Shown one piece after another: positions 41,526 to 63,449 of a stretch of DNA of 64,000 bases. Source of the DNA: Flaccisagitta enflata. Its lineage: Eukaryota. The stretch is from assembly GCA_965153355.1 (NCBI GenBank), contig OZ231126.1, positions 47,988,001-48,052,000 of the forward strand, read 5' to 3'. Within the stretch, counting starts at the first letter, position 1. Each line of letters opens with the position of its first letter. The position numbers and the translations under genes were made by a program. Under the pieces are notes generated by a model, which was given only the letters and a program-made list of their open reading frames with translations, searched no databases and was not told where the DNA came from.

Positions 41526-42121
41526 GATCTATTTCATTGTCCTTTCGTTGGCATTGCTATTTATTTGCTTGTGATGATATATTTGATTATCTGGATGCAT
41601 TCTTTCTTTCAGTTAATCAGTGTATTTTAACAAGCAATTCAACCTGGAAGCACTTTGGGGATTACGGTGGAACCTGTGGTGAGTGTACTTGGCTACATTT
41701 GTTGACAATTGCTTGAATTGGTTAAGTTATGATGATGCACTAGCTAGTTAGAAGTAGGTATTAACCAATCCCTTTTCCCCCCCTCTCTTTTGTTTCTTTC
41801 TCTTTCTCTTCCTGTATATAATAGTTTAAATACACTTTCTTACCTAGATATCAGTGATAGTATCCACAGACTGACGATGGGAACAACGCCACTGGAAGTG
41901 ACGTTATCAGCGCAATTGGCGTGGTGATGGCGTTGTCAGACCGGACGTGGCGTCTTCAACCGGAAGTTGCGTGGACGACGAGATCCTGATGACGGTACGA
42001 GACAGTATTTTCTACGGTTCTTTACAGTATTTAAACACCAAAGCCGCTGGTGAAAATTGCTAACCCTATATCATTTCTCCCTACCATACATGAGCACAAC
42101 ACGTAGGTACCACCAGATACA

Positions 42122-44836
42122 ATGGCGAATATCAAACCGATCGAAGCCGCTGTATGGGACCTACGTATCATTTCGTTCGTGGGGCGAGAATTGGAGAAAA
42201 GCTTTAATTCAATGACGCTCGCCTTCGACCACGCAACCAAAACGCCGTCGGAGGAAGCGCAGATTGAATTAAACTCTAAAAGCAACTCCTTCTGTGACCT
42301 CTACGAGAAACGATTAAGCAAATACAATGCCTGCGCAATTGAGGATGAACCCAATGCCAAAGAGGTCGCCGGACAGTTGATGCAGGACATGGTTCGCTAC
42401 AAACTGACGCTCGAGGCTCACTTCAAGACGCAGTTGGCAGGGAACGTCGACGAAGTAGTTGACGACCCGGCCGAAGACGTCGGAGTGTTGGGGAGACTAT
42501 CGCTTCTGCACGAAAGCAGGACAAGCGGAAAAGGTGAAGGCGAGAAGGAAGGAAAGGAGAAACCGGAAGTGACAAAGGAAACGGCGCCTCCAAAGGAAAC
42601 ACCACCGGCGTCGATGCTAAACTCATTGAGGAAAAAAGTGTCGTTGACGATGACTGCCGGAAAGAAAGCGCTCGAGAATGTCGTCAGCAGTCAGACGCCG
42701 GAAAAACGCCAACCCCCGTCACATCCTCCCCCTCCTCCTCCTCCAGCAACACCCCCCGCGGCGGCGGCAGCGCCCACAACAGAAGATTCCACGCGGTCAC
42801 GACCACTTCCACCCAGTTTTCAGTGGTTTGAAGACAAACGGCGGAAAGCGGAAGAGGCCAAAGAGAAAGACAAGGGGGCTGAAAAGCCTCAAAGCGTGAC
42901 CACCTCCGCAGCTCCTCGTGCTGATCCTGAACGTAAAGACGATCCGGAAAAAGCCAAGTCGACAGCATCATCGACAAAGTCATCAAAGAAGGGATCTCAG
43001 AGGAGTAAAATGTCGACGGTGATGTCACAACAGGTGGAAAAAGAGAGACAGAGAAAAAGGGAAGCAGAAGAGGAACGAATTAAGTCCAGCGACGCACAGG
43101 CAGATGCGGATATTGCTTACCATCAAAGCATAATCCAAGATCTGCAAAGGCAAAAAGATCTCGACAAAACCCTCCACAAAAAAGAATTGGAAAATATAGA
43201 CAAAAATGCGGCGGATTTGCAGGCATTAATAACAGCCGCCGAAGACGACCAATCGACGGCAAGCGGCGCCGCCGACGATGGAGAGAAGTCGAGAAATGCC
43301 GGCGCCGGACTGGAAATGACCGCCGCAGGTGCAGCATTTGGTGGCGAAACTCCGGACGCATTGACGAGCGCTTGGGTAAACGGCGTGATGTCGAGGCCGA
43401 CGTCGAGGGCCAAAAAAGAAGTGAGAACAAAAACGCCGTCAATCCCGGAGAGATCGCTACAGGATCCCCAGCGGAAGTCAAAAAAGAAGCTGAACATCGA
43501 AGACCCAAAAAAGGAAAACACGGCAAAAAAGGAGGACAAAAAACCACCGACAATGCCATTCCGCAAATTGGGTGATGTGAAGCCGAAAAAAGAGAGAACA
43601 GGAGAAACAGAAAAAACAAAGGGGAAAATCAAGACGAAAGACAAGAAGCCGGGGGTAAAGGTGGATGCATCCGCACCCGCGCATCCGCAAAGATCAAGAA
43701 GCCCCAGTCACTCGTCAATTGTGTCGAGATCGTCATCAACCCCCTCCAAGGCGCCGTCAATAGCTTCCAGCAGCACGAGCAGCTGCGCTTCAAGTGCTTC
43801 AAACACGTTAATGACGAGCATCTTGAGGCTACAGCGGCAACAGTTGGAAGCAGCTCTGAAGCAAACAGCCATCCAACAGCTGAAGGAAGCTAGACCCGCC
43901 AAAAAATTCTCCGGAAGCACTACTAAAAGAATGGACTTTGAAAAGCACATGAAAATCTTCAACGAGGCGATGGAGATCCCGGGCGTGTCCAAAAGACAGA
44001 TGCTGAATGAGATGCAGCATTGGTTTGAAGGATCCGCCTTCAAACTAATCGAGGCGGAAACGCTGAGGAAGTCGGAATCGGCCGTCGACGAGGCGATAAC
44101 AAAGCTGACGAAGAAGTTCGGGATGCGCCAAGAAACCGCGTTGGAGATGCTTGACGAGGTGCTGCAGGGAAAAGCAGTCGACGAGAAAGATCACAACGGG
44201 ATGCTCGATTTTTACGCACGATTGGTGAGCGTCCATTCATTCGCAGTCAAGACCAAAAAAGCGGACGACTTTGAGAACAAGTTGGTGGTCAAGACGATCG
44301 TCGAGAAGAAGCTTCCCTTCCTAAAAGATAAGTGGGCAAAGAAAGTTGTGAGGTATAGAAAGAAAAATGATTCAGATTTGAGATTTGCTGATTTTCTTGA
44401 ATTCATTGATGAAGAGCAAACCATTTCTGAAATGTTATCAGGATACCATCGCAACAACAATCAAAACAAACCTGCTGCATCAGCCAAAATTTCCGCGACG
44501 ACCGCCAACGCCGCCGCAAAGAAGGATACGATGCCGACGCCGGTCCCAAAAACGGCGCCGGGCCTCTGTCCCCGCTGCGACGGAAAACACGGTCTAGCGA
44601 ATTGCCCCACTTACGGCGAGATGAACGCGTCGGACCGCCGGAAGTTCAATAGAAACTTAGGCATTTGCTTCAGATGTCTCGAAGGAGGCCATCTTGCCAA
44701 GGCGTGTCCGTCGACGATCACTTGCGACAAATGCAACGGCTTCCACCACCCTCTGGCGCATCCGGAACCCAACCCGGCGGGAAAACAACCTGATGACAAC
44801 AAGAACGCCGGCGAGAAGGGATCCGAATCTGCGTGA
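42122..44836 (+). CDS. gag: Bel/Pao Gag, 904 aa
   Basis: Starts 96 bp after the LTR; KKFSG capsid-like region; triple knuckle CPRCDGKHGLANC / CFRCLEGGHLAKAC / CDKCNGFHHPLAH. Confidence 0.92.
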   Translation: MANIKPIEAAVWDLRIISFVGRELEKSFNSMTLAFDHATKTPSEEAQIELNSKSNSFCDLYEKRLSKYNACAIEDEPNAKEVAGQLMQDMVRYKLTLEAHFKTQLAGNVDEVVDDPAEDVGVLGRLSLLHESRTSGKGEGEKEGKEKPEVTKETAPPKETPPASMLNSLRKKVSLTMTAGKKALENVVSSQTPEKRQPPSHPPPPPPPATPPAAAAAPTTEDSTRSRPLPPSFQWFEDKRRKAEEAKEKDKGAEKPQSVTTSAAPRADPERKDDPEKAKSTASSTKSSKKGSQRSKMSTVMSQQVEKERQRKREAEEERIKSSDAQADADIAYHQSIIQDLQRQKDLDKTLHKKELENIDKNAADLQALITAAEDDQSTASGAADDGEKSRNAGAGLEMTAAGAAFGGETPDALTSAWVNGVMSRPTSRAKKEVRTKTPSIPERSLQDPQRKSKKKLNIEDPKKENTAKKEDKKPPTMPFRKLGDVKPKKERTGETEKTKGKIKTKDKKPGVKVDASAPAHPQRSRSPSHSSIVSRSSSTPSKAPSIASSSTSSCASSASNTLMTSILRLQRQQLEAALKQTAIQQLKEARPAKKFSGSTTKRMDFEKHMKIFNEAMEIPGVSKRQMLNEMQHWFEGSAFKLIEAETLRKSESAVDEAITKLTKKFGMRQETALEMLDEVLQGKAVDEKDHNGMLDFYARLVSVHSFAVKTKKADDFENKLVVKTIVEKKLPFLKDKWAKKVVRYRKKNDSDLRFADFLEFIDEEQTISEMLSGYHRNNNQNKPAASAKISATTANAAAKKDTMPTPVPKTAPGLCPRCDGKHGLANCPTYGEMNASDRRKFNRNLGICFRCLEGGHLAKACPSTITCDKCNGFHHPLAHPEPNPAGKQPDDNKNAGEKGSESA

Positions 44837-47036
44837 CATGAGGCGCCTTCGACCAACTCCGTCTTCAAAGTCGGCGGCGACGACGGAGCGTGGAGGTTGA
44901 TACTGCCGCTGTACATAACAAACGGTGAAAGAAAAATAAAGACTTTTGCGTTGATGGATGGCGGCGCCAACCGACACGTTGTGTCAAAGGACTTGTGTAA
45001 AAAGCTAAAACTAAGTGGGAGGAAAACAGCGATGACGATAACCACCCTTGAGAAAATGGTGGAAGGGGAGAGGGAAGTGGCAGATGTGGTGGTTGAAGGC
45101 ACCAACGGCTACAGCATCACTCTCAACAACGCCATTTTTGGGGAGATTGTCGCATCAAAGGACAACAGACCGCCACGCGCTGAGGATGTCACTGGGATGG
45201 AACATCTCGCCGACCTGGAATTCCCTTCGTTTCCAGATGGCGACGACGGTTGCTCCATCGGCGTGATAATTGGCGCGGAACATGCCCGAATTTGGATCGG
45301 CGGAGAAACCCACAAAGGCGCCGAGGGCTTACCCATGGGAATTTCCACGCCGCTTGGCGCCGGTCTGATCGGCCCCAGAAACAATACTGACTCGCGATAT
45401 TTTGTTTGCAATTTTGCTTCCTTTCACAGCATTGATTCAGATCTGGTTAAAACCATAAAAAGAATAGATGCCGGTGAATTTGAAAAAGTGGACGAAAATA
45501 AGCGAGAAATGTCGCTCAGCGACAAATTTGCAATCCGCCAAATGAAGGAAGGCATCAGGTGGGATCCCATAACGGAACACTACCGTACTCCAGTCCTTCA
45601 TAAAGGCGGAAGGCAAGCAACAGCTGATGCACTAAACAATTTGGATTCCCCAACGATGGCCCTGGACCGCTTATTTTGCCTGAAAAAACAATTAATGCGG
45701 GACCCAGAAAGACGCCGAATAACATTCGAGACTATGGCAAAATTCTGGGAAAAAGGGCGCGTGAGGAAAATAGATCCAAATGAGCACGCCAACATGCCGC
45801 CAGATCAGCCTAGATGGACAATACCAATCCATGTGGCTGATAAACCTGGCAAACCAGGTCAAGTACGTATCTGCCACGATTGTAAGGCAGCAGTGGGAGG
45901 ATCAAGCCTTAACAACCAGCTCCTGGACGGGCCACAACTTGCCAACGACATCAGAGGTGTGTTGATGCGCTTCCGGTGTGAAGGCCCCGTCGCTGTGGGC
46001 GCGGACATTAAGGATTACTTCCACGTGATTTATGTCACCGAAGAGGACGCAGGTGTCTTCCGTTATTACTGGTTTCGCGACGAGAAAATGGAAGAAATTG
46101 AATTGAATGAGTTCCTTGGCCACATCTTCGGTGCAAAATCATCAAATTGTGTGGCAATTTTCACACTGCAACACCACGTGGAACAGCATTTGGCTGAATA
46201 TGGTCCCCTCGTGGTTCAAGCAGTGATGAGAAACATGTATATTGATGATTTGATAAAATCACTGCGCAACACCAAAGTGGCGTGGGCATCACGGCTGCCC
46301 TCGAGGACGCCGGAATGAATCTGTGCAAATGGAGATCAAGCCACCCGGAAGTCCTTGAAGGCGATACAACGGATCCGGCGCCGGCGGCGCCAGTAGATGT
46401 ATCCGGCGCCACCGAAGACACGACGAAATTGTTAGGCCTTAGATACTCTTTTTCTGCCGATGCCTTTTCCTTTTTGCCAGATAAAGCGAAAGCTGAAATG
46501 AATGTGCAAACCAAAAGACAAATGCTCAAACTGATCGCGTCAATATTTGACCCGTTGGGTTTTTTGGAACCATTTGTCATTTGGGCAAGGCTGATCTTGC
46601 AAAAAGTGTTACGCGTTGTCGAGAATTGGGATAGCAAAGACATTCCAAATGAGTCCCTCGCCGAATTTGTGGAATGGCAGATGAGCCTCAAATCCTTAGA
46701 GTCATTCCGCATATCGAGATGGACGGCGACGCTGGAGACGCAGGACGGCAGAAAAGTTCTCCACGGCTATTCGGACGCGAGTGGATGGGCGTATGGAGCC
46801 ATGTACTACGTCCGCTACGAAGGTCCAAATGGTGAGATTCACGTGTCCATCGTCTGCTCCAAATCCCACGTTGTCCCGCTAAAGGATGTGGTGGCTGGCC
46901 ACATGGAATCAACGCCGCGCTTGGAGCTTCAAGCAGCCCGTCTCGCGGCCAGAATGCGCGCCACCATAATTGAAGAAACAGGGAGTTATGATGGTTATGT
47001 AAACTGGACCGATTCAGAGTGTGTGATTAAGCAGCT
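44837..47036 (+). pseudogene. pol: Bel/Pao pol (protease, RT, partial RNase H), in frame with gag after one TGA; one frameshift near 46280
   Basis: LMDGGAN, ADIKDYF, YIDD, FDPLGF, YSDASGWAYGA, PRLELQAA, WTDSECV; 10-bp deletion relative to copy 2. Confidence 0.92.
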
Positions 47037-50000
47037 GTTTTTGAATGGCTGGTATGTCTGTCTGGTCTGTAATTAAATTAATAGCTACCTCTGATCCTGT
47101 CGCAAATGTGCTCATCATTGGAAGCCATGAGCGACTTGGGTCGACGTCATCTTGTCCATACTGCGCCAGTGCTTCTGACGCCGATAAATCCGGATGTGCT
47201 GCTGCTGCTGCTGCTGGTGATGGTAGTGCCGCTGCTGCGGCTGATGTCGATGCAGCAGAGTGATTTCCTCCAATCCACGGAGCAACGACTGCAGTCGCCG
47301 TTGGTGCCATCAAGGTGGCGTTTTTCATGGTCTTCAACTTTGGAGCCCTTTTTGTCCACGTGGTCTTTTTCGCCCGCCACCACTCTTTTCTTTTTTCGTT
47401 CGCGGTCATTTTGCCTGAAATTGAAAGAATGGTGGACAAGTCAGTATTTTCCCCCTTTTTAAGAGTAGGTTCTTCCGAAACTACATTGCACAGCGGGGAG
47501 ATTTTTTCTGCTTCTGTAGGCAAAATGCGTTTTCTAATATTTTCCCATGTTTCAGCTGAATGGCGTGATAAACTGTCAACTGGTTTCATATAATTAGAGC
47601 TACCTTTTTTATATATCACAGTAGTATTTTCTTTGTCTAAGACTGAATCTAAAAACTCAATGAGCCTATGCTGCCTTAGATATTTGCCACTAAAACCTAA
47701 TTTTAAAGACGTTAATGCCTGGCAATCAATTCTAATTATTACCTTTGTAAACCTAAGATAGTAATAAAATTTGCGAATTGCATAGTACAAACCTAATAAC
47801 TCCCTCTCTGAGCTTCCTGCCTTCCGTTCTGTTTCATTGAAAGCTCTACTTCCAAATGCAATTGGTACCTCTAGCCTTTTTATCTTTTTACTAGGAAATT
47901 CTATATCTTTTATTTGTGATAGGGAGTAGCCTACGCCCTCACCAGAAGAATCACAGGTCACTATCATTTCAGTATCATAAGTTGGGTGAGCTAATTGGGT
48001 AGCATTAACTATTTGACCTCTGACCTTATCAAAGGCCTTTGTATGTTCTTCTGTCCAGTAACTTTCAATTCTTTCGGGAAATTCTTTTTTAAGTAGATTA
48101 TACAAGCATTTTACTGTTAAGCCGTATCCTTCACAAAAATTTCTATAGTAATTAGTAAACCCCAAAAATCTCATTATTTCCTTTTTTGTTTTAAGTGGCC
48201 TGTGCCAATTTTCTAGTACAGCAGTTTTAGATTTTTCTATGCTTATAAAGCTCTTGTCGGTATATAAGCCTAAAACCATAGTTCCATGTGTAAAAAGTTC
48301 TAGTTTATCTAAACGTATTTTAACATTGTATTTAACTAGTTTTGAAAAAACTACCTTAAGTACTTTCCAATGAAAATCTGACCCGCCTTCAAAAGTGAAA
48401 ACGAACCAGTCGTCTACATACACGGCGACAAATTCTCTCACCTTTTTGCCATCAATGACCTCATCAATGCTTTCTACAATTTTGTTCATGCAGACCTGAA
48501 AGCTATTTGCACTACAGTACAAACCTTGCACAGTTCTCACATAAGCTAGATTACCTACATCGTTTGCCGTCGTGGTATGTAGGTACTTAATGCAATCACG
48601 ATTGACTGCTACTGAGAAAAAACCTTGATTTATATCAAATTTTGATAGGAACTCAAATCCTTGCATTTTATTTCTTAGTGTTTCTATAAATGGTAAGTTA
48701 GAAGACTGTGGTTTGCATATGGAATTAATCAATCTTGCGTCAGAAACAAGACGATATCCTTTTAAAGAAGAATAATCATTTTTACCTGGTTTCTTGACTA
48801 AAAAATTGCACATTCTGAATGCGCTTGCTTCCTCAGCCTTAATAAAAACTCCTGCACGGAGCAAATGCTCCTCCATTCTAGCTAATAGTTTTTGTTCCGG
48901 TAGGCTTTTCTTATAATTATTCTGGTAGGCACGCTTATTTTCATGAACCTCGAATTTTGTATTATGGAATTCGTACGGCACGCTGCCGATATCGTAGTTA
49001 TGACGCGAAAAGCATGGCCTATATTCTTGAATCTCTTTTCTAACTCTACTTTGTAAGTTTTTGTCACACATATTTAAATTTAGATCCTTTGAGTCGAGAT
49101 TGAAAAATTCATAGTCATGGAACTCGTCTATAGGTCTTTCTACTTCATCTAAAATCCTATAAATTGTTTCTGCTTCATCATCTGAGGGTCTTTCCCACAA
49201 AAATTCAAATTTAGGTTCCATGCATACGTCCTCATTATTAATGAATAACTCGGCTAAATTGAACAGTTTCTCACCTTTTCCGCGCTGTTGGGAGCCGCCT
49301 TTGAAACGCTGATTGGTCGCTGAACTTGCTTGCGTGATTGGCATCACCGCCATCGGCGATGCAGACATCGTCGTCGCGTTATTCGTCATCGGCATCGTCG
49401 TCGTCGGCATCCTCGTCATCGTTGTCCCCGCTGCGATTGGCCTCGTCGACATTGTTGATGTTATTGCCGGCGCTACCGGCGCTACCGGCGCTACCGGCGC
49501 TACCGGCGTCATCGGCGCCACCACTGTTGTCGGCGGCGTCGCCGTTACTGTCGTTGACTTCGCTGTTGTTGCCGCTGTTTCTGCTTCTGTTTCTAATGTG
49601 TCGAGAAAGTCTTCTATTTCGCGGAAGAGAGTGCTGTCCGGCGTTGCGATTGGCGAACCCAAAAGCCTTTCTTCATCCTGTATTAGGGGTTTTGGGGGAA
49701 ATGATTCTTTAATCAATTTGATATGGTCAGAAGAAGGAGATTTGTTTACAAATTTTGTATATTTTATTTCACTTTTCCCTGATGGAGCATAAATGGTTAA
49801 TGTTTTTGACTCCATGTCGATTTTTGTTTTTAGTTTTTCCATGAGACTCAAACCTATAATAGGATAGTCCCAAGCTAGATCTGCATTTACAACGAAAAAG
49901 TCAGTTTTTAGATCTATGTCTCCTATTCTAAGTCCAAACAAACCTATTCCTGCCCCTGGGATGCTATTTCCAGTTGCACCAACTAAATTTATCTCATTAT

Positions 50001-50238
50001 TTAACGGTTTCAAATCAATTGCAAAATGTTTCTCTTTTTCAGAAATAAGTGACCAATTTGAGCCAGTATCTGCTAAAGCAGTTATTATTTTATCCTTAAA
50101 TCCTGTCTTTCTAAGGGTGATCTTTATAAAGATCCCCTTTTTACCCAATTTATTAATATTATCTTGATTATTTCTGTCTTTTACTTCTGCCCAGAGTCTT
50201 TGAAGTTCTGGCCTCGATAGTTTAAAGAATTTGGGCAT
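47037..50238 (-). CDS. pol: Ty3/Gypsy Pol (aspartic protease, RT, RNase H), truncated before integrase
   Basis: ALADTGS, RLVSDARLIN, KFDINQGFF, YVDDW, RFLGFTNYYRNF, TCDSSGEGVG, SERELLG, RIDCQAL, VDSLSR; open for over 1000 codons. Confidence 0.95.
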
Positions 50239-52247
50239 CTAGCCTTGATATGACCTAATTTACCACACCGGTAACATTTAGTGTTTGATAAGTCCACAGC
50301 TGAAACCTTTTCTTGGGTTTTCTCTTGTTTTTGTAATTCTCTGTCCTGAGTACCAGCATTATTTCTCCTTTCTTGCCTATCTGGATTGTACATTCTAACT
50401 ACTGGCAACTTTCCTTTGTAAGGAGTCAAACGTTGTTCTCTTTTTGAAACATTATGTGGTTGTTGGTTTCTAATGTTATTCATAGTAATATCATTTCTAG
50501 GTTGAGCTTCTAAGATTAGCGAGTTGGACATCGCTTCCTCCATATTTTTTGGCATGGAAAGCCTTAAATTAGCTTTTAAAGGATGTGCTAGTCCATCTAA
50601 AAACCTAAACAGGACTAGGTTATCAATTGTATTTGGTGGTAGGCCTACAAAGCACTGAGTACTTAGTCTTTTTAACTCTAGACCATATTCAAAAGCCTTT
50701 TCTCCACTTCGTTGCCTTCTTGCATTGAACAATTGTAAGGCTGTGGTCTGATTGGTTGAACTTACTGCTTTAATGAACAAATCAATAATCTGATTTAGGG
50801 TTAGATTTGTATTTTTTGTTTCATCTTCTGTCATAATTGAATCCAAAGTACTATAGTAAGGCTCAATTACACTTGTACTAAGTCTGGCTAGTCCCTTTGC
50901 CTTTTTGACTTCTCCTGCGCTAAAAGCGCGTTTTACTATTTTGCCCCATGTCTCCACTGGGAGAGACGCTGAACCAGTATACTTAGGAATCTGAATAGCA
51001 CTGGGTGACTCTACTTTTACGGACACTTCGTCTCCTTCTACTTCTATTTCTTGAGCTTGAGCTGCTTGTTTTGCGTTATTTCCACTATTGTTGCTACTAC
51101 TATTGCCACTACTGCTGCTACTATTGCCACTATTGTTGCTACTATTAGCAGCAGGGCTTTCTACAGTAACTGACCTTCTGCTTCTAGATTTAGGAATTTT
51201 ACTCATCAGATCCTGATTTTCTAACTTTAACCTCGCTATTTCAGCTTTCATTTTTTCTATCTCACTACCGCTATTGTTATTAGTCGCTACTCTCACCTCT
51301 TCAGTCATGCTGTTGCTTGATGGACTACTTGACGGATTGCTCGATGTTTCTTCCACGGCCAAGATTTTGTCATCTGAGAATAGAACAGTTGGTTCAAAGT
51401 TTATTTCCTCTTTAATGGGGAATATTTTTTCTTCATATCTTTTATTTTTGTTTCCCACATTCACAACCAAATCGAAGTGATCTTCTTTCATTTCTTCAAG
51501 TTTTAAGAATGTGATTAACCTATTTATATTGTACATCTCATCGTGACTTATGTCCAAATAGGAAGCTCCACTCAATATCTCAGAGAATTCACTAGCACCA
51601 AGATCTCTGAAGATTATTTTTTCTTCATGGATTCCCTTTTGCAGGTCTAAATAGCCTGGGAAACCGTCATTTGGTGATTTATACCCTTTTCTGTAGGCCT
51701 CAATTGTGTTCATGATTGGTTTGTCTTGTTTTTGAAAGATATTATCTAAGTCGGTTACCTTGGTCATTTTTTCGTTAAAATCTAATCTAATTATTTGCAT
51801 ATTATGGTCATCATTGCATTTTCGATGACAACAGCTAACCATTTTGTTTTTTATGATAAAACGTATGTCATCTTCTCCACACACTTTAAAATTGAAAGCT
51901 GTGACATGTTCTCCTTCGTTACATTTATCGAAACAGTAGCAAGTTTTCACAGTTTTGATATTGTTTTTTATTTTATATAAAAGAATGCCATCTCCTGGTC
52001 TTATGTATTTTCTTATTTCTTTGATCACTCCGTTTTTGTCAAATGTTAGTCCTAGTTTTATGTCATAATGAGAGTTAGAAAATGACAGATACTCATTTTG
52101 GTGTGTGTCGGCAATTTCTGCCATTTCCTTAAAACCCAGGGTAAACACATCACCATCTCCAGTAAAACTCGTCACACTTCTTTTCATCTTACTAAAAGGG
52201 TGTTTTTTAGAAACTAAAGGAAAATTCTTCAGCTCTAATATATGTCC
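50181..52247 (-). CDS. gag: C-terminal part of giant ORF1: Cys-rich region, Gag capsid and CCHC zinc knuckle
   Basis: IPKYTGS..VETW, RRQRSGEKAFEYGLEL, FRFLDGL, PKNMEEA, CYRCGKLGHIKARC. The first ~70 aa of the tracked ORF (52460-52248) come from an inserted repeat. Confidence 0.9.
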   Translation of the reverse strand, partial: GHILELKNFPLVSKKHPFSKMKRSVTSFTGDGDVFTLGFKEMAEIADTHQNEYLSFSNSHYDIKLGLTFDKNGVIKEIRKYIRPGDGILLYKIKNNIKTVKTCYCFDKCNEGEHVTAFNFKVCGEDDIRFIIKNKMVSCCHRKCNDDHNMQIIRLDFNEKMTKVTDLDNIFQKQDKPIMNTIEAYRKGYKSPNDGFPGYLDLQKGIHEEKIIFRDLGASEFSEILSGASYLDISHDEMYNINRLITFLKLEEMKEDHFDLVVNVGNKNKRYEEKIFPIKEEINFEPTVLFSDDKILAVEETSSNPSSSPSSNSMTEEVRVATNNNSGSEIEKMKAEIARLKLENQDLMSKIPKSRSRRSVTVESPAANSSNNSGNSSSSSGNSSSNNSGNNAKQAAQAQEIEVEGDEVSVKVESPSAIQIPKYTGSASLPVETWGKIVKRAFSAGEVKKAKGLARLSTSVIEPYYSTLDSIMTEDETKNTNLTLNQIIDLFIKAVSSTNQTTALQLFNARRQRSGEKAFEYGLELKRLSTQCFVGLPPNTIDNLVLFRFLDGLAHPLKANLRLSMPKNMEEAMSNSLILEAQPRNDITMNNIRNQQPHNVSKREQRLTPYKGKLPVVRMYNPDRQERRNNAGTQDRELQKQEKTQEKVSAVDLSNTKCYRCGKLGHIKARCPNSLNYRGQNFKDSGQK
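50220..50226 (-). promoter_or_regulatory. -1 ribosomal frameshift slippery heptamer U UUA AAC
   Basis: Lies in the gag/pol overlap, phased X XXY YYZ in the gag frame; pol is in the -1 frame. Confidence 0.8.
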
Positions 52248-52716
52248 TTTTGGGCAGCGGCCCCGAAGGGGCCGATGACCTATGCTTTCACACAGGGGAA
52301 TTTTCTCCTCCTTCTTCTCCTTCTCCTCCTTCGTACCCCCCCTACCACTTCGAGACCTAAATCTTAACCTCAAGGTGTAAATCCCAGCCTTGAGGCCCAA
52401 ATCCCAGCCTTGAGGCCCAAATCCCAGCCTCAAGGCCCAAATCCCAGCCTCAAGGCCCAAATCCCAGCCTCAAGGCCCAAATCCCAGCCTCAGGCCCAAA
52501 TTTCAGCCCCAAGACCCAAATCCCAATCTAAGGGCTAAAATCCAAGCCTCCAGGCTCAAATCCCAGCCTCCAGACTCAAATCCAAGCCTCCCGGCCCTAA
52601 TCCCAGCCTTTAGGCTCAAATAAAATCAGCATAGGTCATCGGTCCCTTCACCTCACACCCACATACACTCATAGGGGCAACGGGTACCGCTGACCATCTA
52701 ACGCTTTTGCGACTAT
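52248..52716. mobile_element. Helentron/HINE-like insertion with 21-bp tandem repeat (aggcccaaatcccagcctc..) splitting ORF1
   Basis: Both ends match the dispersed module at 8230-8340 and 25780-25829; T runs at both junctions, no TSD. Confidence 0.8.
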
Positions 52717-55700
52717 TTCAGTTGCCTTGAACCCTAACATCATCAAATCAAAACTGTCCTCATATATAGTTGGCAATTTCTCAGCTAATTGAGGTTCCGG
52801 TCTTTCATGATAGAATGTTTCCTTCTTCCCAACGGGACTTTTGTTTTTTCTAGTTCCTTCGATCCTTTTAACACGCCCTCTCTGGTTTCTATACACAACT
52901 ATGCGATTGTTGTCTCTTATATGGTCGTAATGGTAATCACCACTTTTCTTTATACTTTTGGACGTTCTATCCAAGTATTGTTCTATTGTCTCTTTTGAGT
53001 TCAGTGTCTCTATTTTTCCTCTTTCAATTTCATCACAAATCACACTGATAACTTCATCTTTACCATAGTCCTCCTCTCTTCCCCTCTGATCTTGATCACT
53101 GACCCTATCTTTTCCCCTCTGATCTTGATCACTGCTCTTATCAAGATCTGCGATATGATTTATTTGACTCAAATAACTTTTATTTTCTATTGGTTTAACA
53201 CAATCACAGGTTCGAGTGATACATTTTGAAATATCAGTGTCTTGAGATTTGATTTCCTCAGGTTTCATTTTTTCAGCTCCTGTCATTGAACGGAAAAAGA
53301 TTTCTTGATCTAGATCATTGGTTAAATCCGTGATTTTATGAAATTTTCCCCTAAAAAAGTCGTAATTAGGCGAGAGGTCAGGGGTCATTGACCTTGAGGG
53401 AAAGATTTTGAAATCAGCAGGTTCAAGTTTCAGTTGTTTCATTGGTTGATTAATGAAATATATATTTATATCTCCACCTTTGCTCTTTTCCACGACCAAA
53501 AACATTTCATGAACAACATTGCTTTTACCATCTATCTGAAATTGCTCATAAAATTGATGATACTTAACTAGTTTATCATTTACAAAAATGTGTTGTAATA
53601 GACCATTACGGAAAAATTTCATAGTGATATCCATAGTCTTTAACCAAGTCTTATCGATTTTTATTTGGGTTTTATAGCTGTACTTATTTGTTATAATATC
53701 CTTGAAGTCATTCGTTTCATTATTTTCTTCCCATTTTTTAATCAGGTTTTCTGTCACAACTGGTCTAACTTGACCCTCTTTCTCATAAATCTCAATTTTT
53801 ACCCCCTTTCCATCATTAGCAGTTTTTGCAGTGTAACGGAAAGGCTTGTAGATGTCTTCAGTAGCTCGTGTTTTGTATAAATATTCATTTTTATGATTTT
53901 TAGATGTAAAAGTGTAATCTGTTATTCCTAACCTTTCTTGGCCCTTAATGATAAACACGTCTGAAATGCTATCCTTAACCTTTTGTTTTAAGACCTCCCA
54001 GTCGTCTTCTGGGTCCCCGCTTTGTTCTACAAAAATATTATCTTTGGTCAAACAAATTAAGTCCTTTTGATCGAGGTTGGTTTCCATTTTAGAATTGAAC
54101 TTATTGATTAATTTTAGGTCCTCATGAAACTTATAATCAAACACGATTTGGGGTCTCATTTTAGGAAGTTTTGCGAATTTCCAATTTAATTGTCCTTTAA
54201 ATGCGTCTAAAAATAGCTCCGCGCAGTCATTTTTTCCAGAGTTCGGTTCTTTTGTTTTTTGTCTTATGATTTTTTCACAGATTGGTTTTTGTTCAAATTC
54301 CATATTTTCGTCGTCTCGATATTCGTTCACATCTTTTATTGCCATGACTTCTAGGTCATGGTTTAGAGATTCATTGATTTCCATTTCTTCCCTTTTTTTG
54401 TTCTCTTGTTTACCGTGATTATGATTATTGATATTTTCATTTGGACTGACTTCATTTTTATCATTGTTTTTATTTTCAAGCTCCTCATTATCACAATTAT
54501 CATCATGATTTTTGTCGTAATCAAGTCCATCATCATGATCGGCTTCATACTCACGCTCGTCACAATGATCACCGCCGTTATCATTTACAGTGTCATTTCC
54601 ACGATCTTCACTATCATTGCCAGGACTGTCATCACCTCCATTGCCACATTCATCTTGATCATCATCATGGTTATCACCATCATAGCCGTGACTGTCATCA
54701 TGATCATCACCATCATCATTGTGATTATCATCATAATCATCACCGTCATAGCTGTGACTATCATCATGATTATCATCACGACCACTATCATCATTTCCAT
54801 CATCCTGGTCACTGTCATCATCTCCATCATTTTCACTATCATCACTTTCACCGGAATAATCATCATCATCCCAATCATCATCCTCTGAGTAGTAAGTATC
54901 TGAGTCATAACTCTCATTGACTCCTTCTACAATGGCTTCCTCATTGATAGTGTGTAGCAATCTGTAGTCTAAACTGGATAACGGGATTTCCTCACTTCTT
55001 TCTTGTGCGTTCATGACTACGTATCTGCAATTCAAATTCCATTTAGCATGTTCTGTGAATGGGTCATCATCTGCCTTCCAACAGCTAAGACGAAGCTTGC
55101 AACCTACACACACTACTTTGTCTTCTATATAATTTAAGGAGGAACAAAAACAGTTAGGCTCATGGTTAATTAAACTTGGTGGGTAATAGGTTTTCAAAAA
55201 ACCCATGGATGCTAAAGTTACTGGGTTAGAGAGTTTTCCTGCGGGCCATTTACTCTTTTGAAAGCTCTTTATCCTTCGGGCCCTGTTGAAGAGTTCTGTT
55301 GTTTTATTCCCAAATGTCACAAACTTAGTCCTTCTTTTCTTCCCTTCTAAACATGCCCATATCTCAACGGGATGAGTGAAAAAACCTTGACTTACAGTCA
55401 TTCCGTCCTCATATCTTTTTATCGCGTCAACCCATTCCTTCCTAGGCTTTTCAGGGACATGAGTCAGAAATCTTGATACTAACTCTGCTGCTTCCCCACA
55501 TGCAAGAGCCTCATCCTCTTTGTCAGGATAATTATCAATTTGATGTTCACAGAACTTCGTTCCAATATTCTCAACTTCATTCTCATAGATACATTCATTC
55601 TCACACAGCATTCCTTCCACGTGATTCGCGCAGTATACGTGTTCTGCACAGTACTTTTCTGACGCAATGATGTCTGCTATCTGGTTTGTTAGTTTGTTTA

Positions 55701-56770
55701 TTTCGTCTTCCTTCTTTACGTAAGGGAGTAAATATTTTGGGAAATCATCTTGAAATTCACTTTTTATCTTTTGTAAATGTCTTAATACTTTTGTCATGAC
55801 TGGCCTTGGGTCGGCTGGAATGGCCATGTCCTCGATAATAGGTAATGTTAAACCTGGGATCCCAAGATGCAATCCAGATAAAAAGAAAACCCCATAGTAA
55901 GAGCCAAGTTGTTGGCGCCTGATGCGTACTATCTGAGTCGGTTCAAAGAAACCCTTAGCAGATAGGCTATCTTTTTTCAAACTTGGATTTAGGTACCAAA
56001 ATTCTCCTAAGTGATCGACATAAGAACCTACGTTTAGAGTAGGCAAAAATGTTGGCTCTTGACAAACAAAACATCGACATTCCTTTGCATGTATTTTTTC
56101 CCCATAGACTATCCTCTTGTCTTCCATGCCTTTTGCTAAACCAGCCAGCTCGAGGGCTCTTGATATGTTATATTGAGTTAAGGTTTGGTTTCTTTTTTTC
56201 TCACTAATTGGGATATTTTCATAAATTTCTTCAAAATTATTGGCAGAGCCACTAGAGCGATATTCTACTCTGCCCATATTCCAATTATTCCCGTTGCTAA
56301 ATTCATATAATTCCTGCAACTCTTTGCTGTCTAGAAGTAAAGGCATTACTAACCGTTTAGGTTTGATTCCATGCTGGATCCTGAAAATTTTTTCTTGCGG
56401 GATGTTAGTTGTACTTTCGTTGGTCTTAGTTTGATTTTGATTTTCACAATTGTTTTCACTTAAATTTCGTTCGTTGCAGTTGATTTCATTTATTATTGTT
56501 TTTAATTTAGAAATGATTTTAAGCGTAATTGCGATCAAGTCCTTCGTTTTTATTTCTTTAACGCCCTTAACGCATTCTGATATGAGATTCACTTCTTTAG
56601 CATCATTCGAGGTCAGGTCGTCTCCTTCAGACATCGTTAAAATCTTAATCTCTAACTTTTGTAAGTCAGTAAAAATCTCGTCTGGATTTGGGTTTTGTGA
56701 TTCCCAGTGATGCGGAACATTAGAACACGAGTCCTCTGAATGCGTTGTATACGGCTGTTGTTGTTCATGC

Positions 56771-56851
<81 letters not shown>

Positions 56852-57981
56852 AACAAAACAATTAATCGATTCACATTTTGAAAATTTGGTTCATCGGCGA
56901 AAATCGTTGATATTGTTTGTATTGTTGTAGTCACTACTTCTTGAGCGTATTGGCTGCAAGATTGCATTTGCAGCTCAGTGGCTTTTGCGTCTGCCACTCT
57001 TTGAAGAAGCTCCAGACTTTTCTCTTGCCACTCACCTTTCAGTCTCATTCTCTCATTCAGACTTTCAGTCGTAATAGACGGATCATCGATCGGTGGCTGA
57101 TTTTGCAGCTCTGAATTTATGTTAATGAGAGCCAAAATTGTTTCATATATTTCATTTCTATTCATACCAATGCTAGACCTCGTCTGAATGCCATTTGCGT
57201 CATTCATCTCAATTGCATCTTTTATTTGAAATGCTACATTCTCAGTTAGCGAGTTCGCAGAGAGCAAATTCTCGCCTTCTATCCTTTTTCCTTCCATGTA
57301 AAGTTCATGGAACTGATTTTTATCAAAAGTTTTAGGCTCAGGAGCCCCGTAGAGATACCAATCCCTAGCTTCTGCCCCTTTCACCTCCTCTATCGTGAAC
57401 ACTTTGTTTTGTTTTGTCTTAATTTCCATAGGTTTTTTCATTTTATGATACAAATGGCTCAATCTTTCTGCTATTTTGTCCTTTGAATTGTCACATACAT
57501 GCCTGTTGGCCTTTGCCTTAAAGGCTGGACGAGAAATTTCAAGAATATCAAAAATGTTTTTTATTTCTTTTATTTTCTCTGTTTCTAGGAATTTTAGTAT
57601 TCTAGCCTCAGATCTTTTCTGCATCTCCCTTGATACGATTTTAGTTGGATCGGAACACCCACAGTCGATCTCAGATACACCCTCAATAATGGTTTCCTTT
57701 TTGGTTGTTATTGCCTCCTGCAATTCAGTCACAATTTTGTCAATCAGTTCGAGATAAATCAGATGATTAAAGCCTTGAGAGTTCTCTAATTCTTCTCCCC
57801 CCATCACAGCAGCTTCCATCATAGAGGTGAGTAAGTAAATGCGATCTCTAACAAAAAGCGGTACCTTTGGCTCGATTTTCATGCATTCATCTAACAGTTG
57901 TGTCATAGATTGGTGAAACTTTACTTCTAGTTTGCCTTCTCTATTGATCTCTATTGTCGCGTTATTGCAACGGGATTCCAT
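52717..57981 (-). CDS. N-terminal part of giant ORF1: polyQ, BIR domain, Asp-rich tract, unknown domains
   Basis: 1755 open codons; (CAA)n at 56770-56850; BIR motif RIKSF..KWP..LASMGF..VVCVGC..W..DDPFTEH..C at ~55018-55278; D-rich 54480-54890. Confidence 0.88.
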
Positions 57982-58110
57982 GAAACATTCTTTCTTTGAT
58001 ACTTCAACCTTACCATTCGAAGTGCTGTAATCCGGGTTTACAGGTCCTAACGTCGTTGATGGGGTCCTTTCACCGACGTTAGCAGGGTCTTGACCCTTCG
58101 TGGAATCGTG

Positions 58111-58437
58111 TCAATCCATTGGCGTCTTTTCACTTACCTGTCTTTTATGTAAAGATATGTCTGACTCTTTTCTCTCAAAGATGCCCAAGTCCATTTGTAA
58201 GACTGGTGGGAGAGTCTCGGACATTCCAGGAAAGATTCTATGCCTGTCTATGTGATTCACTGTGGTGATCAGCCTAGCAAACCGCACAAGGCACAGAAAA
58301 AGATATAAAGATAAAAGAATCAAGAATTTAAACAAATAAAGGACTGGACTCGGATTGTAGGCGATTAAGAGAAGTCCTATCCCTCCGAGCTGAATCGATA
58401 ATACAGTGAAAATTGATTCACTTGTCACGCTATTCAT
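58111..58437 (-). CDS. Hydrophobic 108-aa ORF in the same frame as ORF1, separated by one TGA
   Basis: Two hydrophobic stretches; the frame stays open from 58110 to the ATG at 57981 (HDSTKGQDPA...KKECF). Confidence 0.55.
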   Translation of the reverse strand: MNSVTSESIFTVLSIQLGGIGLLLIAYNPSPVLYLFKFLILLSLYLFLCLVRFARLITTVNHIDRHRIFPGMSETLPPVLQMDLGIFERKESDISLHKRQVSEKTPMD

Positions 58438-58579
58438 AAACGTCTCTGATGTCTACAAATGAACTGGTAGCAACATAAAGTTAAATAAATGAATATGATT
58501 GCTAACACGAATGTTATCAAGGCTGTCTCTATTACCGTTGATCTTTCTTTTTCCAGTCTATGAGTCACATTCAAGTTCA

Positions 58580-58846
58580 TTAATAATCCTCGTCCTCAAA
58601 AACTATTTGCCTAAACCACTTAAATATTAATCTACCGTTTACTTCTTCCAAGCTAAGCAGCTTTTTTATTACCCTTGGTTTACTTCTTAGGACAGGTACA
58701 AAGAACGTAGACAGAAACTTACGAATTATACTAGAGATGAGTGTATTCCCAAAAGAAATAATCTCACATTTATCTTTTCTTCTTACATGCACGTCTGTCT
58801 CAGTACAGATGACTTCTATATTACCGAGTTCAACAACTTTACTCAT
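58580..58846 (-). CDS. 88-aa accessory ORF in the retroelement leader, unknown function
   Basis: ATG-initiated, normal complexity, ~190 bp downstream of the PBS. Confidence 0.4.
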   Translation of the reverse strand: MSKVVELGNIEVICTETDVHVRRKDKCEIISFGNTLISSIIRKFLSTFFVPVLRSKPRVIKKLLSLEEVNGRLIFKWFRQIVFEDEDY

Positions 58847-59033
58847 CGCCTAGGAACTGGCAATAAATGTCGTCCTAAAAGGCGATAAAATCTAGGAAAA
58901 AGCACTCTTTAGTTTAGCTACGACCTTAGGGTGTTTCACTCTAGATGATCAGGATAAGTCCTTTGATTAGTGTTTATTAAGATTCATCAAATTGCTATTA
59001 GGTTGTGTTAATTTATTTAAGCTATACAGTAGC

Positions 59034-59046
59034 ACCGCTGCCACCA
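59034..59046 (-). promoter_or_regulatory. Primer-binding site complementary to a tRNA-Leu 3' end
   Basis: TGGTGGCAGCGGT, 5 nt downstream of an LTR end in CA. Confidence 0.85.
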
Positions 59047-59051
59047 TAAAT

Positions 59052-59522
59052 TGTGAAATTATATAAACTTGATCTTACTTAGTTTAATAGGTTCTAGTAT
59101 AGCTAAAATTTAGTTCAACCTAGTTGTCATAGGGCAGCAATTATAAGATGTTTTTAAATGCTACAATATGAATTTATTGAATTAAGAAGTTAAGTGTATT
59201 TAGCATATGATGAATCTTGGTTGTGGTAATAAGTAGTTTTGAGTTGCTACTAAAGACTAAGACAGAATTTAATTCTGAAGTCTGTCCTAAGGAGAATGGA
59301 AGATATAAGAAAAGACAACCTTACTATTTAGACTTTATCTAGTCTTAGCCAAGATGAATATCTGCTGGCTATAAAGACTGATGGTCTCACAACTTAGTCT
59401 ATATGAAAACTCAAGACTTGTGATACACCTTAGTCTCTTTCCTCGAAAGCTCAAGATGAAATTTCTTCCGTCTAGTAGAGCTCAAATCCAGGAAGGATCC
59501 AGATTATTTAACAGCCTTCACA
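59052..59522 (-). repeat. Probable 5' LTR of the Gypsy-type element (471 bp)
   Basis: Bounded by a perfect inverted repeat TGTGAA...TTCACA and adjacent to the PBS; no second copy in the window, so the outer end is inferred. Confidence 0.7.
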
Positions 59523-60018
59523 TTTATTCTCTCTAAGTTCTGCTGTGCTTGATAAAAGTAACTGAATAGACAGTTAGCCATTAAACTATCAAATTGGACT
59601 AAAATTTGTGAAAAATGTTAAGATTTTGGTCATTTTTGCCTATTTTGTGACTTTCGGGGCCCCGCAGATGGGACCCACAGGGGCCCCTAACCTTTCCTTT
59701 TGTTTTGCTACACTAGATGATAGTATCTTGAAATAAAATTTTGTTCCTCAATGACATTTAAGATGAACCATCAACAAAAACTCTTTTTTTTTGGCCATTT
59801 TCACCTATTTTGGCCATTTGGGGGCCCCATACGAACCCCTAGAGAGCCCCATGGGGGCGCCTGTCTGCGAGTTCTCCTTATTTTATATCATGCGACTACC
59901 TGGCCTTCAAAAAAGACCAGCCCCAAGGTTTTTTACCAATCTGTTGAGAAAAAGTGAAGAATACAAGGTTAATAGTCACAAATTTGGCCTTTTTTCGATG
60001 GTGCCACACACCCCTTAA
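59523..60018. mobile_element. Partial MITE/foldback arm ending at ccccttaa
   Basis: AT-rich with ggggccc and tttggccattt motifs like other local foldback elements; TTAA-type terminus; partner arm not seen. Confidence 0.4.
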
Positions 60019-60162
60019 AGAGGGGTTCACTAAAATCACTCCTGGGAAGGTAGAATTGGGAAATAAGGCTCAAACTTTATTTTATCTCAAAGTACACATA
60101 AAAAGTAAACTTTTCACCGATGCCATTCTTTCTAGGACAAAAAAAAAGTTTTATTGTCCCAT

Positions 60163-60561
60163 CTATTCAACGATAAAGGTGCAAGTTGGGGAGTATTTTT
60201 CATGCTCGTACATTGCAACATCTCCTGGCTCCCAATCTCTCAGTTCAAGTTTACAACAGAAGCATCTAACCAACCCTCTGTACATTTCGATCATATAGAA
60301 ACCTGCACTCGCAAGAAGCAATGGGGTTTGGGAACGATTACAAGGCCAGTCACGGAAAGAGTTAAGACGGTGTCTTAGAATCGAATAATCGGGATCGTTA
60401 AGAGAATAAGCAGGGAAGTCTTGAAAAGGGTGCTCTTCATTCTCAGCCATATTTACATTTGATGGTATAGAAACTTTTCTTCTTTTAAAAACAATGTTCT
60501 TAATTCTTCTTTTTTTCAAAAAGGCTTTTAATCTTTGTTTTTTACTACTTCCAGTAACCAT
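60163..60561 (-). CDS. Single-BIR inhibitor-of-apoptosis-like protein with basic N-terminus
   Basis: RLNSFRDWP..LASAGFY..VRCFCC..LRDWEPGD..EHEKYSPTCTF; AATAAA on the coding strand at ~60149-60154 and ~60077-60082. Confidence 0.9.
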   Translation of the reverse strand: MVTGSSKKQRLKAFLKKRRIKNIVFKRRKVSIPSNVNMAENEEHPFQDFPAYSLNDPDYSILRHRLNSFRDWPCNRSQTPLLLASAGFYMIEMYRGLVRCFCCKLELRDWEPGDVAMYEHEKYSPTCTFIVE

Positions 60562-60567
60562 ATATCT

Positions 60568-60625
60568 AATCAGTGACGCCAGATATCAGTGACATCAATC
60601 AGTGACGCCAGATATCAGTGACATC
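60568..60625. repeat. Perfect 29-bp tandem duplication just upstream of the BIR gene
   Basis: aatcagtgacgccagatatcagtgacatc occurs twice. Confidence 0.9.
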
Positions 60626-61092
60626 AATCATCAACTTGCATAGAATTTTTTTGTTTTTCGTCTCTGTCTTCGCCGTTTAACTATAGTTCTTTTCACTCCA
60701 CGTAACGCGTCTTTGCGTGCGCCGGCACCCTGGGACAAAATAGGAAAAAATACAATGTTTATTTCTATGCATGTAGAAAAAGGAGGTGTCATATTATGTC
60801 TGTATGTATGTGATATAGGACATGTATATGTACTTTTGTTCTGCGTCTGCGTCTACGTCGTCTATTTCTGTTTCCTTTTCGTTTTCTTCTTCTACGTCTC
60901 ATTTTAGTTTTGTTGTTCCCTTTTTTTCGTGAATGAATGAGTTCTCTAATAAAAGATTTAAAAAAATAACAAATGATTTCGTTGATTGCTTATTTAGTGG
61001 TTTAAGCTGTTCATAACGATGATTAGACAACGGTTTGGAATGAGTTTTACCTGTTCAATACCTTTAATTGAAGGTCTTGTGCCTCCATGCAA

Positions 61093-61786: not shown

Positions 61787-62668
61787 TTAAGTGTAAGTGT
61801 CTTTTTTCCTAAACGCAAGCGTGAAAGTGAAAGGCTTCATGAAGTCCAGTTGGTCTGGACTGGCAGTTAACAAATGAAGAAAAAGAGGAATAGAAGTAAC
61901 AAATAGAAAAAATTTTCGATCTTTAAGAAAGTCCTTATTTTCCCTAAATGCAACTTGAAGAGCATGGATCTCTTTTTCTCGCACACTTTTTTCACGCAAA
62001 TGAGGAGGCATCTCTTCTCTAAATGTGTTTACAATGATACGAAAGCCAGATCGCAATTCAACAAACAGAAGATGAGCTATTTCGGATTCTGACGTGTCAA
62101 CGAAGAGGATTAAGGTTCTTCCAGGTCCGGTTGAGAGAATGTTGTCATCAGCAGAGACAGATCCTAGAACGTCTGCGGCGGAGATAGGTCCACCAGGCCC
62201 ACCAGGTCCACCAGGTCCAAAAGGTCCTCCAGAGGCGGAGCCAGCTCCTTTAACGTCAGAGGCGGAGTCGGGTTCTTGAACGTCAGAGGCGAAGCCGTGT
62301 CCTTGAACGTCAGAGGCGGAGCCGGAGCCGGAGCCGAAGCTGGAGCTAGAGGCAGAGGCAGAGCCAGAGCCAGAGCCAGAGCCTCTGAAAGAGCCGAAAG
62401 CCTCCAAAAGCTTTTGAAAGAGATCTTCGGGTTCAACAGATGGAATCTCATCAGGAATGTCATCTTGTGATTTATTCTCTTCGATGTTTTCTTGTGGTTC
62501 TCCACTTTCATCTATATCGTTTTCTCGTGGTTTATCCATATCGATGCCTTCATCAACATCAATTAGAGAGTGTGTCGGACACTCTGAGAAAAGTTTGTTG
62601 TAAAAGTTGGACAAAGTTTTTGCAATGTGAAGAATTGGCAACCAAAGAAGGGAAACAATAGTTGCCAT
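61787..62668 (-). CDS. 293-aa protein with a C-terminal divergent Ty3/Gypsy-type RNase H-like domain
   Basis: LILFVDTS...KSVREKEIHALQVAF...FLKDRKFFLFVTSIPL...FTFTLAFRK follows the Gypsy RNase H motif order. Confidence 0.65.
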   Translation of the reverse strand: MATIVSLLWLPILHIAKTLSNFYNKLFSECPTHSLIDVDEGIDMDKPRENDIDESGEPQENIEENKSQDDIPDEIPSVEPEDLFQKLLEAFGSFRGSGSGSGSASASSSSFGSGSGSASDVQGHGFASDVQEPDSASDVKGAGSASGGPFGPGGPGGPGGPISAADVLGSVSADDNILSTGPGRTLILFVDTSESEIAHLLFVELRSGFRIIVNTFREEMPPHLREKSVREKEIHALQVAFRENKDFLKDRKFFLFVTSIPLFLHLLTASPDQLDFMKPFTFTLAFRKKDTYT

Positions 62669-63234: not shown

Positions 63235-63449
63235 TTTGTTACTGTTGTTTGTTGCTGCTGTTACTGTTGTTGTTGCTGTCGTGTTATTGGTCGTGCTCAA
63301 AATTTCTAATACACGTGCGATCACTCAGTACACCCATAGACCGAGATTGAAAATAAATAACTATCACGTGAATCACGCTATGAAAAAGAGAAAAAAAAAG
63401 AAATTAACCACAAAAAAAAAAAAAACAAGAAAAAAAAAACTGGTATCCA

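Follow-up and report, generated by a model that had tools for sequence, protein, structure and literature searches.

A probable Ty3/Gypsy-like retroelement in Flaccisagitta enflata with Gag at the end of a giant, BIR-containing first reading frame

A 64,000-nucleotide stretch of the genome of Flaccisagitta enflata (assembly GCA_965153355.1, contig OZ231126.1, positions 47,988,001 to 48,052,000 of the forward strand; hereafter the window, numbered from its first letter) carries at 47037-59522 what is probably a defective, 3′-truncated copy of a rare Ty3/Gypsy-like lineage, in which Gag forms the last ~300 residues of a giant first open reading frame (ORF1). The ~2,150 residues ahead of Gag appear, by comparison with relatives, to be conserved cargo and part of this Ty3/Gypsy-like element. 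In order, the cargo consists of an N-terminal helical block, a Cys/His-rich module preceding a BIR domain (the pre-BIR module), the BIR domain itself, which is a variant of the type found in inhibitor of apoptosis proteins (IAPs), an Asp-rich tract and further conserved blocks. An initial annotation, made from the letters of the window, had described a Gag fused to a giant BIR-containing polyprotein. That observation is confirmed: the fused frame is real and lineage-wide. The interpretation placed upon it is supported in part.

The element is oriented on the minus strand, as are all its features given below. Its open frames, stop to stop, are 52669-58110 (1813 aa), 50181-52469 (762 aa) and 47014-50238 (1074 aa). 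Along the minus strand the order is a long terminal repeat (LTR), a primer-binding site, ORF1, a CCHC zinc knuckle, a slippery heptamer and then protease (PR), reverse transcriptase (RT) and RNase H. ORF1 is read in two parts. Part A, the N-terminal cargo, starts at the first ATG after an in-frame TGA and has 1755 codons (52717-57981). Part B has 688 codons (50184-52247) and comprises a conserved block following the junction with part A, a Ser/Asn-rich linker, a capsid-like region and the knuckle. Counted from the ATG at 57981, the two parts add up to the 2443 aa that had been annotated; ORF1 is thus predicted to have ~2,440 residues, or ~2,600 if a hydrophobic segment upstream belongs to it. 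The length is not a matter of chance, since the expectation for an open frame of 1755 codons at the local composition is ~10^-60, and the longest open frame over 200 shuffles of the element was 203 aa. Base composition is uniform over cargo, gag and pol.

In the window copy the two parts of ORF1 are parted by a dispersed, SINE-like repeat (SINE, short interspersed nuclear element) at 52250-52715. A/T runs at both of its ends leave the precise position of the empty site ambiguous when only this copy is considered, and only one-third of the possible join lengths preserve the frame. The empty site is seen in a contig of a marine-metagenome run (run X3, record 19; 1795 nt, no gaps), which joins 52716 directly to 52249 and so skips 466 nt. 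As 466 is 1 mod 3, the two ORF1 frames are one in the natural allele. The initial annotation had postulated an insertion of 469 bp. It was right about the insertion, the repeat being absent from the X3 contig, and slightly off in its length, the natural allele retaining one codon more than the 469-nt join. The in-frame join of the two halves, which it had considered likely, holds in the empty site and in a relative, P0009, whose sequence crosses the junction. None of the outcomes named beforehand as speaking against the fusion occurred: the frame continues through the empty site, and near 52200 no gag was found that had a start or an LTR of its own.

The other two data sets are the first DNA run (X1) and a second DNA run of the host organism (X2). 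In X2, record 11 has 179 unlisted nt and a depth of 138.6, the same depth as the contig covering 52858, and from this equality it probably lacks the insertion too. X1 contigs end at both borders of the repeat. Since X3 lacks the repeat and the X1 contigs stop at its ends, the insertion looks like a recent polymorphism.

Within the repeat there are a tandem core of 20 nt (CCTCAAGGCCCAAATCCCAG) and an inverted repeat of 22 nt, and one of its ends carries an A/T run. Of its two ends, one matches elsewhere in the window over 47 nt at 95.7% (10573-10619 and 25783-25829), the other over 66 nt at 88-91% (8228-8293 and 23455-23520), and the core recurs at 10786-10884 and 38919-39096. Contig depth in the bins that hold the repeat runs to millions, and reads of a poly(A) RNA library fall on it. 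The repeat belongs to an extremely abundant family of SINE type or of the type of miniature inverted-repeat transposable elements. Copies of the family in the window lie at 52250-52715, 10573-10904, 38855-39125, 8228-8336, 23455-23563 and 25783-25829.

That the fusion is more than a property of one copy is indicated by its relatives. An exhaustive phmmer search with residues 614-1813 of the 1813-aa frame against 1.84 billion cluster representatives (E<=1e-3) gave 260 matches. Of these matches 150 are listed; for 146 the similarity is confined to the region around the BIR, and for four it reaches further: P0008 (342 aa, E 1.3e-52), P0009 (1385 aa, E 2.1e-39), P0010 (1067 aa, E 1.1e-26) and P0141 (300 aa, E 8.2e-5). 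The telling one is P0009, which has a BIR and a zf-CCHC in a single protein, is collinear with both halves of ORF1 and is unbroken across the junction. The alignment pairs residues 3-352 of P0009 with 678-1032 of the first frame (28% identity), residues 539-614 with 1689-1759 of the same frame, and residues 662-1385 with 78-760 of the second frame (30%, E 1e-88, without composition adjustment); composition-adjusted BLASTP of P0009 against the second frame retains only aa 77-350 (E 1e-16). Identity to P0009 in the gag part is 43%. P0010 aligns with two regions, one in the N-terminal cargo (residues 75-330, 29%), the other being the pre-BIR module (590-855, 30%).

P0009, at ~30% identity, is continuous over the whole span between pre-BIR module and knuckle; the fusion of cargo, BIR and gag therefore belongs to the lineage and is not an accident of the window copy. 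Identity of ~30% over well more than 1,000 residues also means that the cargo has long been kept as protein. A word-based search with P0009 returned only itself (one member, one contig). Scans of metagenome contigs with the 1813-aa frame and with alignment A1 (four sequences, three of whose rows bear the BIR) had none confirmed from 596 and 53 pattern matches, and scans of viral contigs with alignments A1 and A2 yielded none from 12 and 107 pattern matches.

The BIR domain itself (55009-55272) is secure. Pfam places it at aa 946-1031 of the 1813-aa frame with E 1.2e-12 and 48.6 bits (cut-off 22.9), and the zinc site that the initial annotation called complete can be read intact in the translation as C-x2-C-x16-H-x6-C. 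Ahead of the CxxC the domain carries an insert of ~13 residues with the motif H-x3-C-x-C, common to all three BIR-bearing rows of A1. Its closest solved relatives are BIR3 of cIAP1/2 (E 1.6e-9 to 1e-8), ML-IAP and BIR3 of XIAP, with E values overall up to 1e-5; Survivin is a weaker match than the BIR3-type domains. Immediately before it lies the conserved pre-BIR module (55261-56343), recognizable in A1 by the motifs C-x-C-x2-C, EH-x-YC and C-I-Y. Among solved structures, a profile search with this region matched BIR domains only and found no relative for the module itself.

Elsewhere in the cargo, blocks are conserved with P0010 (aa 75-330 and 590-855, as above), with P0008 and P0009, and weakly with P0141. 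As had been annotated, the translation has a polyglutamine tract (56752-56856) and, at 54475-54912, an Asp-rich tract in which 56 of 138 residues are D. A natural length variant of 12 nt is found at 54427, near the Asp-rich tract. No internal repeats were found inside ORF1.

The Gag portion is placed by its position and by its zinc knuckle. The knuckle, the putative nucleocapsid (50226-50276), is recognized by Pfam as zf-CCHC (E 2e-4, 21.8-23.6 bits against a cut-off of 20.8), and its profile matches retroviral nucleocapsid knuckles among solved structures. Before it lies the capsid-like region (50496-50996), whose look-alikes in the ESM Atlas are clusters of Retrotrans_gag and Ty3_capsid (0.95-0.96). 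Pol is in the -1 frame relative to gag, and within the gag/pol overlap there is a TTTAAAC heptamer (50220-50226) that is phased T_TTA_AAC in the gag frame. The residues L-N-Y across this site are conserved in P0009.

The pol frame proper (47647-50238) contains PR, RT and RNase H. The protease match is weak (gag-asp_proteas, E 1.1e-3, below the Pfam cut-off) and lies around a DTG at 50062-50070. RT, with a YVDD at 48409-48420, and RNase H are recognized with confidence by Pfam (RVT_1, E 2.8e-19; RT_RNaseH_2, E 6e-22). The best solved relatives of the RT-RNase H are the Ty3 Gag-Pol structure 7q5b (E 2.6e-20) and the Ty3 RT 4ol8, and the enzyme is by these matches assigned to the Ty3/Gypsy type. 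The last 130-200 codons after RNase H form a tail of the pol frame without family match (47037-47646), which meets a BEL/Pao element tail to tail at ~47040.

Pol evolves under purifying selection. When the window is compared with X1, X2 and X3, 21 of the 25 listed differences are synonymous, where 28% would be expected for the same types of mutation (P 1e-8). They are the ones listed in 47329-49048 and take in nearly all of the 25 by which X1 record 1 differs from the window. If either of the other minus-strand frames is used instead, the same 25 differences include only two and one synonymous changes, respectively. Within the pol tail, 6 of the 8 differences at aa 879-970 are synonymous.

In ORF1, the natural insertions and deletions listed outside the repeat are of 6 nt, of 12 nt, and of 2 and 1 nt side by side. 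Three further inserts of 4 nt are present in ORF1 in X2 only, each at a GATC site. Taken over the whole region, such inserts (GATC or TCGA) are found at 51601, 52858, 54068 and 60286, in one contig each. Ligation junctions at GATC sites are typical of proximity-ligation libraries. As all these inserts sit at GATC sites and are confined to X2, they look like ligation artefacts of the library.

The assembly of the element is supported by contigs of the three runs, which tile 47253-59499 with 0.1-2% differences; they include one of 4026 nt over the cargo and one of 1525 nt over the gag-pol boundary. The exception is X3 record 21, beside the polyglutamine tract, with ~5% differences and 18 gap letters. 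At the 3′ end, X1 record 1 (3614 nt) stops matching at 47253, beside a masked low-complexity repeat (47188-47252); it has five differences within 47329-47347, and 1876 nt beyond 47253 that are not listed on the window. A contig of X2 is window-like around 47329-47347. Either haplotypes may vary at the 3′ end of the element, or the window may contain a mis-join there.

The interior of the element is covered at 90% likeness by one contig per place per run and at even depth: ~160-380 in X1, ~74-330 in X2 and ~4-12 in X3, with flanks reaching thousands. Left out of these ranges are the two bins of the insertion and the repeat-rich one at 49388-49871, and for X3 also the one at 50840-51323.

The 5′ end bears features of an LTR element. 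The LTR is 471 nt long (59052-59522), starts with TGTGAA and ends with TTCACA, and has TG..CA termini within a 6-nt inverted terminal repeat. In the LTR bin, contigs reach a depth ~1.7-3.5 times that of the interior, and because of this excess other copies of the LTR should exist somewhere. Five nt beyond the LTR is the primer-binding site, TGGTGGCAGCGGTG (59033-59046), which we take to be complementary to the 3′ end of tRNA-Leu. A tRNA scan of the 64-kb window found no tRNA gene, and an Rfam search of 46000-61000 at E<=0.1 returned no match.

Between the primer-binding site and the ATG of ORF1, and in the same frame as ORF1, lies a segment of 108 codons with two hydrophobic stretches (58114-58437). 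It is parted from ORF1 by a single in-frame TGA at 58111-58113. The relative P0010 also has two hydrophobic stretches at its N-terminus, and there they are continuous with the homologous cargo. As the sequence match between the hydrophobic segments of the window element and P0010 is not significant, the correspondence is one of position only. A candidate intron removing the TGA (CAG|GTAAGT ... TTACAG) was considered and rejected: it is 113 nt long, not a multiple of three, and the frame would therefore break.

Several results weigh against reading the window copy as a member of a Ty3/Gypsy-like lineage with cargo ahead of its Gag. The initial annotation had called pol normal, which it is not. 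No match to an integrase was found by Pfam in the pol tail or the window, so that the order PR-RT-RNase H-integrase is not complete, and neither a second copy of the LTR within the 64 kb nor a target-site duplication in the window was found. With integrase, 3′ LTR and target-site duplication all missing, this copy does not display full membership among retroelements. The repeat insertion also breaks the copy, as does the TGA should the hydrophobic segment be part of ORF1. In Gag, the knuckle of the initial annotation is upheld by Pfam and the capsid is not, the capsid-like region staying unmatched in Pfam at a threshold of E<=1; among solved structures, a profile search with gag likewise matched only the knuckle and no capsid. 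Downstream of the TTTAAAC, no significant RNA structure is predicted (z 0.05).

The relatives and the expression data contribute further points of this kind. Word-based searches for homologues of the 1813-aa frame, near and at shorter lengths, found none, and relatives wider than the BIR number only four among the 150 phmmer matches listed from the 1.84 billion representatives. None of the relatives displays linkage to a pol, and P0009, encoded on a contig of 6965 nt, ends at the gag stop. Predicted structures are poor, both for the pre-BIR and BIR module (four sequences; mean local confidence, pLDDT, 44.8) and for the C-terminal cargo alone (pLDDT 32.9). Judged by uncalibrated contig depth, the element is not from a high-copy family. 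Finally, in 12.2 million reads of poly(A) RNA (~6% of run X10) depth is zero in 21 of 30 bins, and real coverage is confined to repeat bins.

Some of these properties would suit a domesticated locus, that is, a once-mobile element that is now a low-copy, immobile host gene with its Gag-BIR and PR-RT-RNase H under selection. Domestication agrees with the coverage of each place by a single contig, at a depth that is even in all three data sets, with the strong synonymous excess in pol that reaches into the unmatched tail, with the missing integrase and 3′ LTR, and with an insertion polymorphism like that of an ordinary locus. Yet LTR, primer-binding site and slippery site are all retained, and an LTR depth of ~1.7-3.5 times the interior fits a second LTR or more copies elsewhere. 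Purifying selection would be equally expected among copies descended from active elements. The low copy number is deduced from depth in the same uncalibrated way as above, and the one poly(A) library has no RNA reads outside repeat bins. On balance we think domestication unlikely. The doubts about the 3′ end lead to a different suspicion, namely that the long frame, or its link to pol or LTR, is an artefact of mis-joined repeats in the assembly. The junction with the BEL/Pao element indeed lies beside the low-complexity repeat at 47188-47252, and X1 record 1 departs from the window at that place with its 1876 unlisted nt. Elsewhere the three-run tiling of 47253-59499 argues against an artefact, which we regard as very improbable.

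A further alternative is an accidental origin of the frame in the window copy: a host BIR gene, or another element, might have come to lie upstream of a normal short gag and be in frame with it by chance. A gag of typical size could start near 51300, where a Met is followed by a coiled-coil-like stretch; any removal of 1 mod 3 joins the frames, a one-in-three chance; and 650 nt upstream of the LTR there is another BIR frame, a canonical one. Against this stands P0009, a protein of another source that is ~30% identical and keeps the same uninterrupted order between pre-BIR module and knuckle. The contig with the empty site preserves the frame, the cargo is inside the element, between primer-binding site and gag, and the neighbouring BIR is just 30% identical and has no lineage-specific insert. 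A chance chimera is therefore largely refuted already, and we give it hardly any credence.

The preferred interpretation, a truncated copy of a Ty3/Gypsy-like lineage with cargo ahead of Gag, can be set beside known systems. The initial annotation knew of no described example; this claim fails because Burro/GYPSM1, planarian elements that are Gypsy-like, have already been described with a BIR inside an ORF1 of 4,873 aa, in which Gag is N-terminal (PMC6431247). They also carry MATH/TRAF, ankyrin, BCL2-like, Smc and env-like motifs, exceed 30 kb and are present in thousands of copies, and the authors of the review suggest that they meddle with the apoptosis and ubiquitin systems of the host (PMC6431247). 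In our survey of the literature on BIR and retroelements this review was the sole relevant description found; the available portions of PMC13524379 and PMC8905726 have nothing on BIR in retroelements.

Burro and the window element are alike in being Gypsy-like LTR elements with a giant first frame that joins Gag, a BIR and much unassigned sequence. They differ in layout, Gag coming first and cargo after in Burro, whereas here the cargo comes first and Gag is C-terminal. They differ also in size and abundance: the ORF1 of ~2,440 aa is half that of Burro, and the window element is low-copy. None of the companion motifs of Burro (MATH/TRAF, ankyrin, BCL2-like, Smc, env-like) was found in Pfam scans of the ORF1 parts, and none of the 150 phmmer matches listed is longer than 1412 aa. 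The two are set apart here by description, not by sequence comparison. What is new, then, is the layout with BIR-bearing cargo before Gag; a BIR in a giant Gypsy ORF1 is already known.

Ty3 (7q5b, 4ol8) resembles the window element in its RT-RNase H, in the CCHC knuckle that ends gag and in a pol that opens with a protease in another frame. From canonical Ty3/Gypsy elements it is set apart by the long conserved sequence, ~2,150 residues, that precedes Gag, and the window copy also by having no integrase. With cellular and baculoviral IAPs (cIAP1/2, XIAP, ML-IAP) it shares the signature of the BIR fold and the C-x2-C-x16-H-x6-C site. Unlike these IAPs, it has a single BIR with an insert of ~13 residues, placed in a retroelement polyprotein, and no RING, CARD or UBC by Pfam. 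Canonical Ty3/Gypsy Gags have a few hundred residues. LTR elements with a fixed extra domain of host-like character reportedly exist in other settings: plant elements with additional ORFs (PMC7264820), an orchid element with a demethylase domain (PMC9289625) and elements of bdelloid rotifers (PMC5408684). Literature listings for these mention no BIR, and the cargo of the window element is much longer and is fused to the N-terminus of Gag.

How such a protein might work can be sketched as follows. Translation of the giant frame would yield Gag, and -1 frameshifting during it would yield Gag-Pol. The protease of the element would then release the cargo modules from the precursor, and the hydrophobic N-terminus would anchor the precursor to membranes. 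BIR3-type domains bind the IAP-binding motifs of caspases and of their antagonists. The BIR module would accordingly be expected to bind host proteins with such motifs, caspases or regulators, and this binding would delay cell death or immune signalling where the element replicates. Because the BIR is closest to BIR3 of cIAP1/2, ML-IAP and XIAP, interference with host cell death or related signalling, encoded by the element, is to our mind the most likely role of the domain, a suggestion drawn from domain resemblance that we offer tentatively.

A bolder proposal is that a low-copy lineage of retrovirus-like Gypsy elements in a marine planktonic organism has, independently of Burro, recruited an IAP-type BIR and ~2,000 further conserved residues as a membrane-anchored N-terminal extension of Gag. 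In this strong form the proposal is somewhat doubtful. If it is true, control of host cell death by elements would be a recurrent strategy of Metaviridae and not a planarian curiosity. Retroelements are usually pictured as gag-pol minimalists, and the described case of a Gypsy-like element with apoptosis domains has so far been Burro. A second lineage would suggest that host cell-death modules are captured by retroelements repeatedly, as they are in large DNA viruses. The more than 1,500 conserved residues without known family, which include a Cys/His-rich module always beside the BIR, would be candidates for host-interaction domains.

The surroundings of the element deserve brief mention. The canonical BIR frame referred to above lies at 60163-60585 on the minus strand, ~650 nt upstream of the LTR. 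It has 140 aa with a Met ~45 residues in, is 30% identical to the BIR of the element and is without the lineage-specific insert. It was considered as the source of the element's BIR and rejected on account of this low identity and the missing insert. Possibly the element inserted in or beside a host IAP gene of which this frame is an exon. On the same strand at 61787-63324, two overlapping frames have weak matches, below the Pfam cut-offs, to RNase H-like (E 4e-3) and Ulp1/C48 peptidase (E 9e-4) families, and are probably remains of other mobile elements.

On the other side, the BEL/Pao element that adjoins the pol tail occupies 42107-47050 on the plus strand. It has a mostly low-complexity stretch of ~900 aa, CCHC fingers, a protease and an RT (YIDD), contains one in-frame stop at 44834-44836 and is cut within its Peptidase_A17 / RNase H-like region. 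Sets of tandem-repeat arrays recur in the window as well: 6475-9320 compared with 21700-24530, 11157-12364 with 39383-40587, and positions 7733, 22970 and 41928. Their spacing of ~15.2 kb and ~28.2 kb points to large segmental duplications or repeated composite elements.

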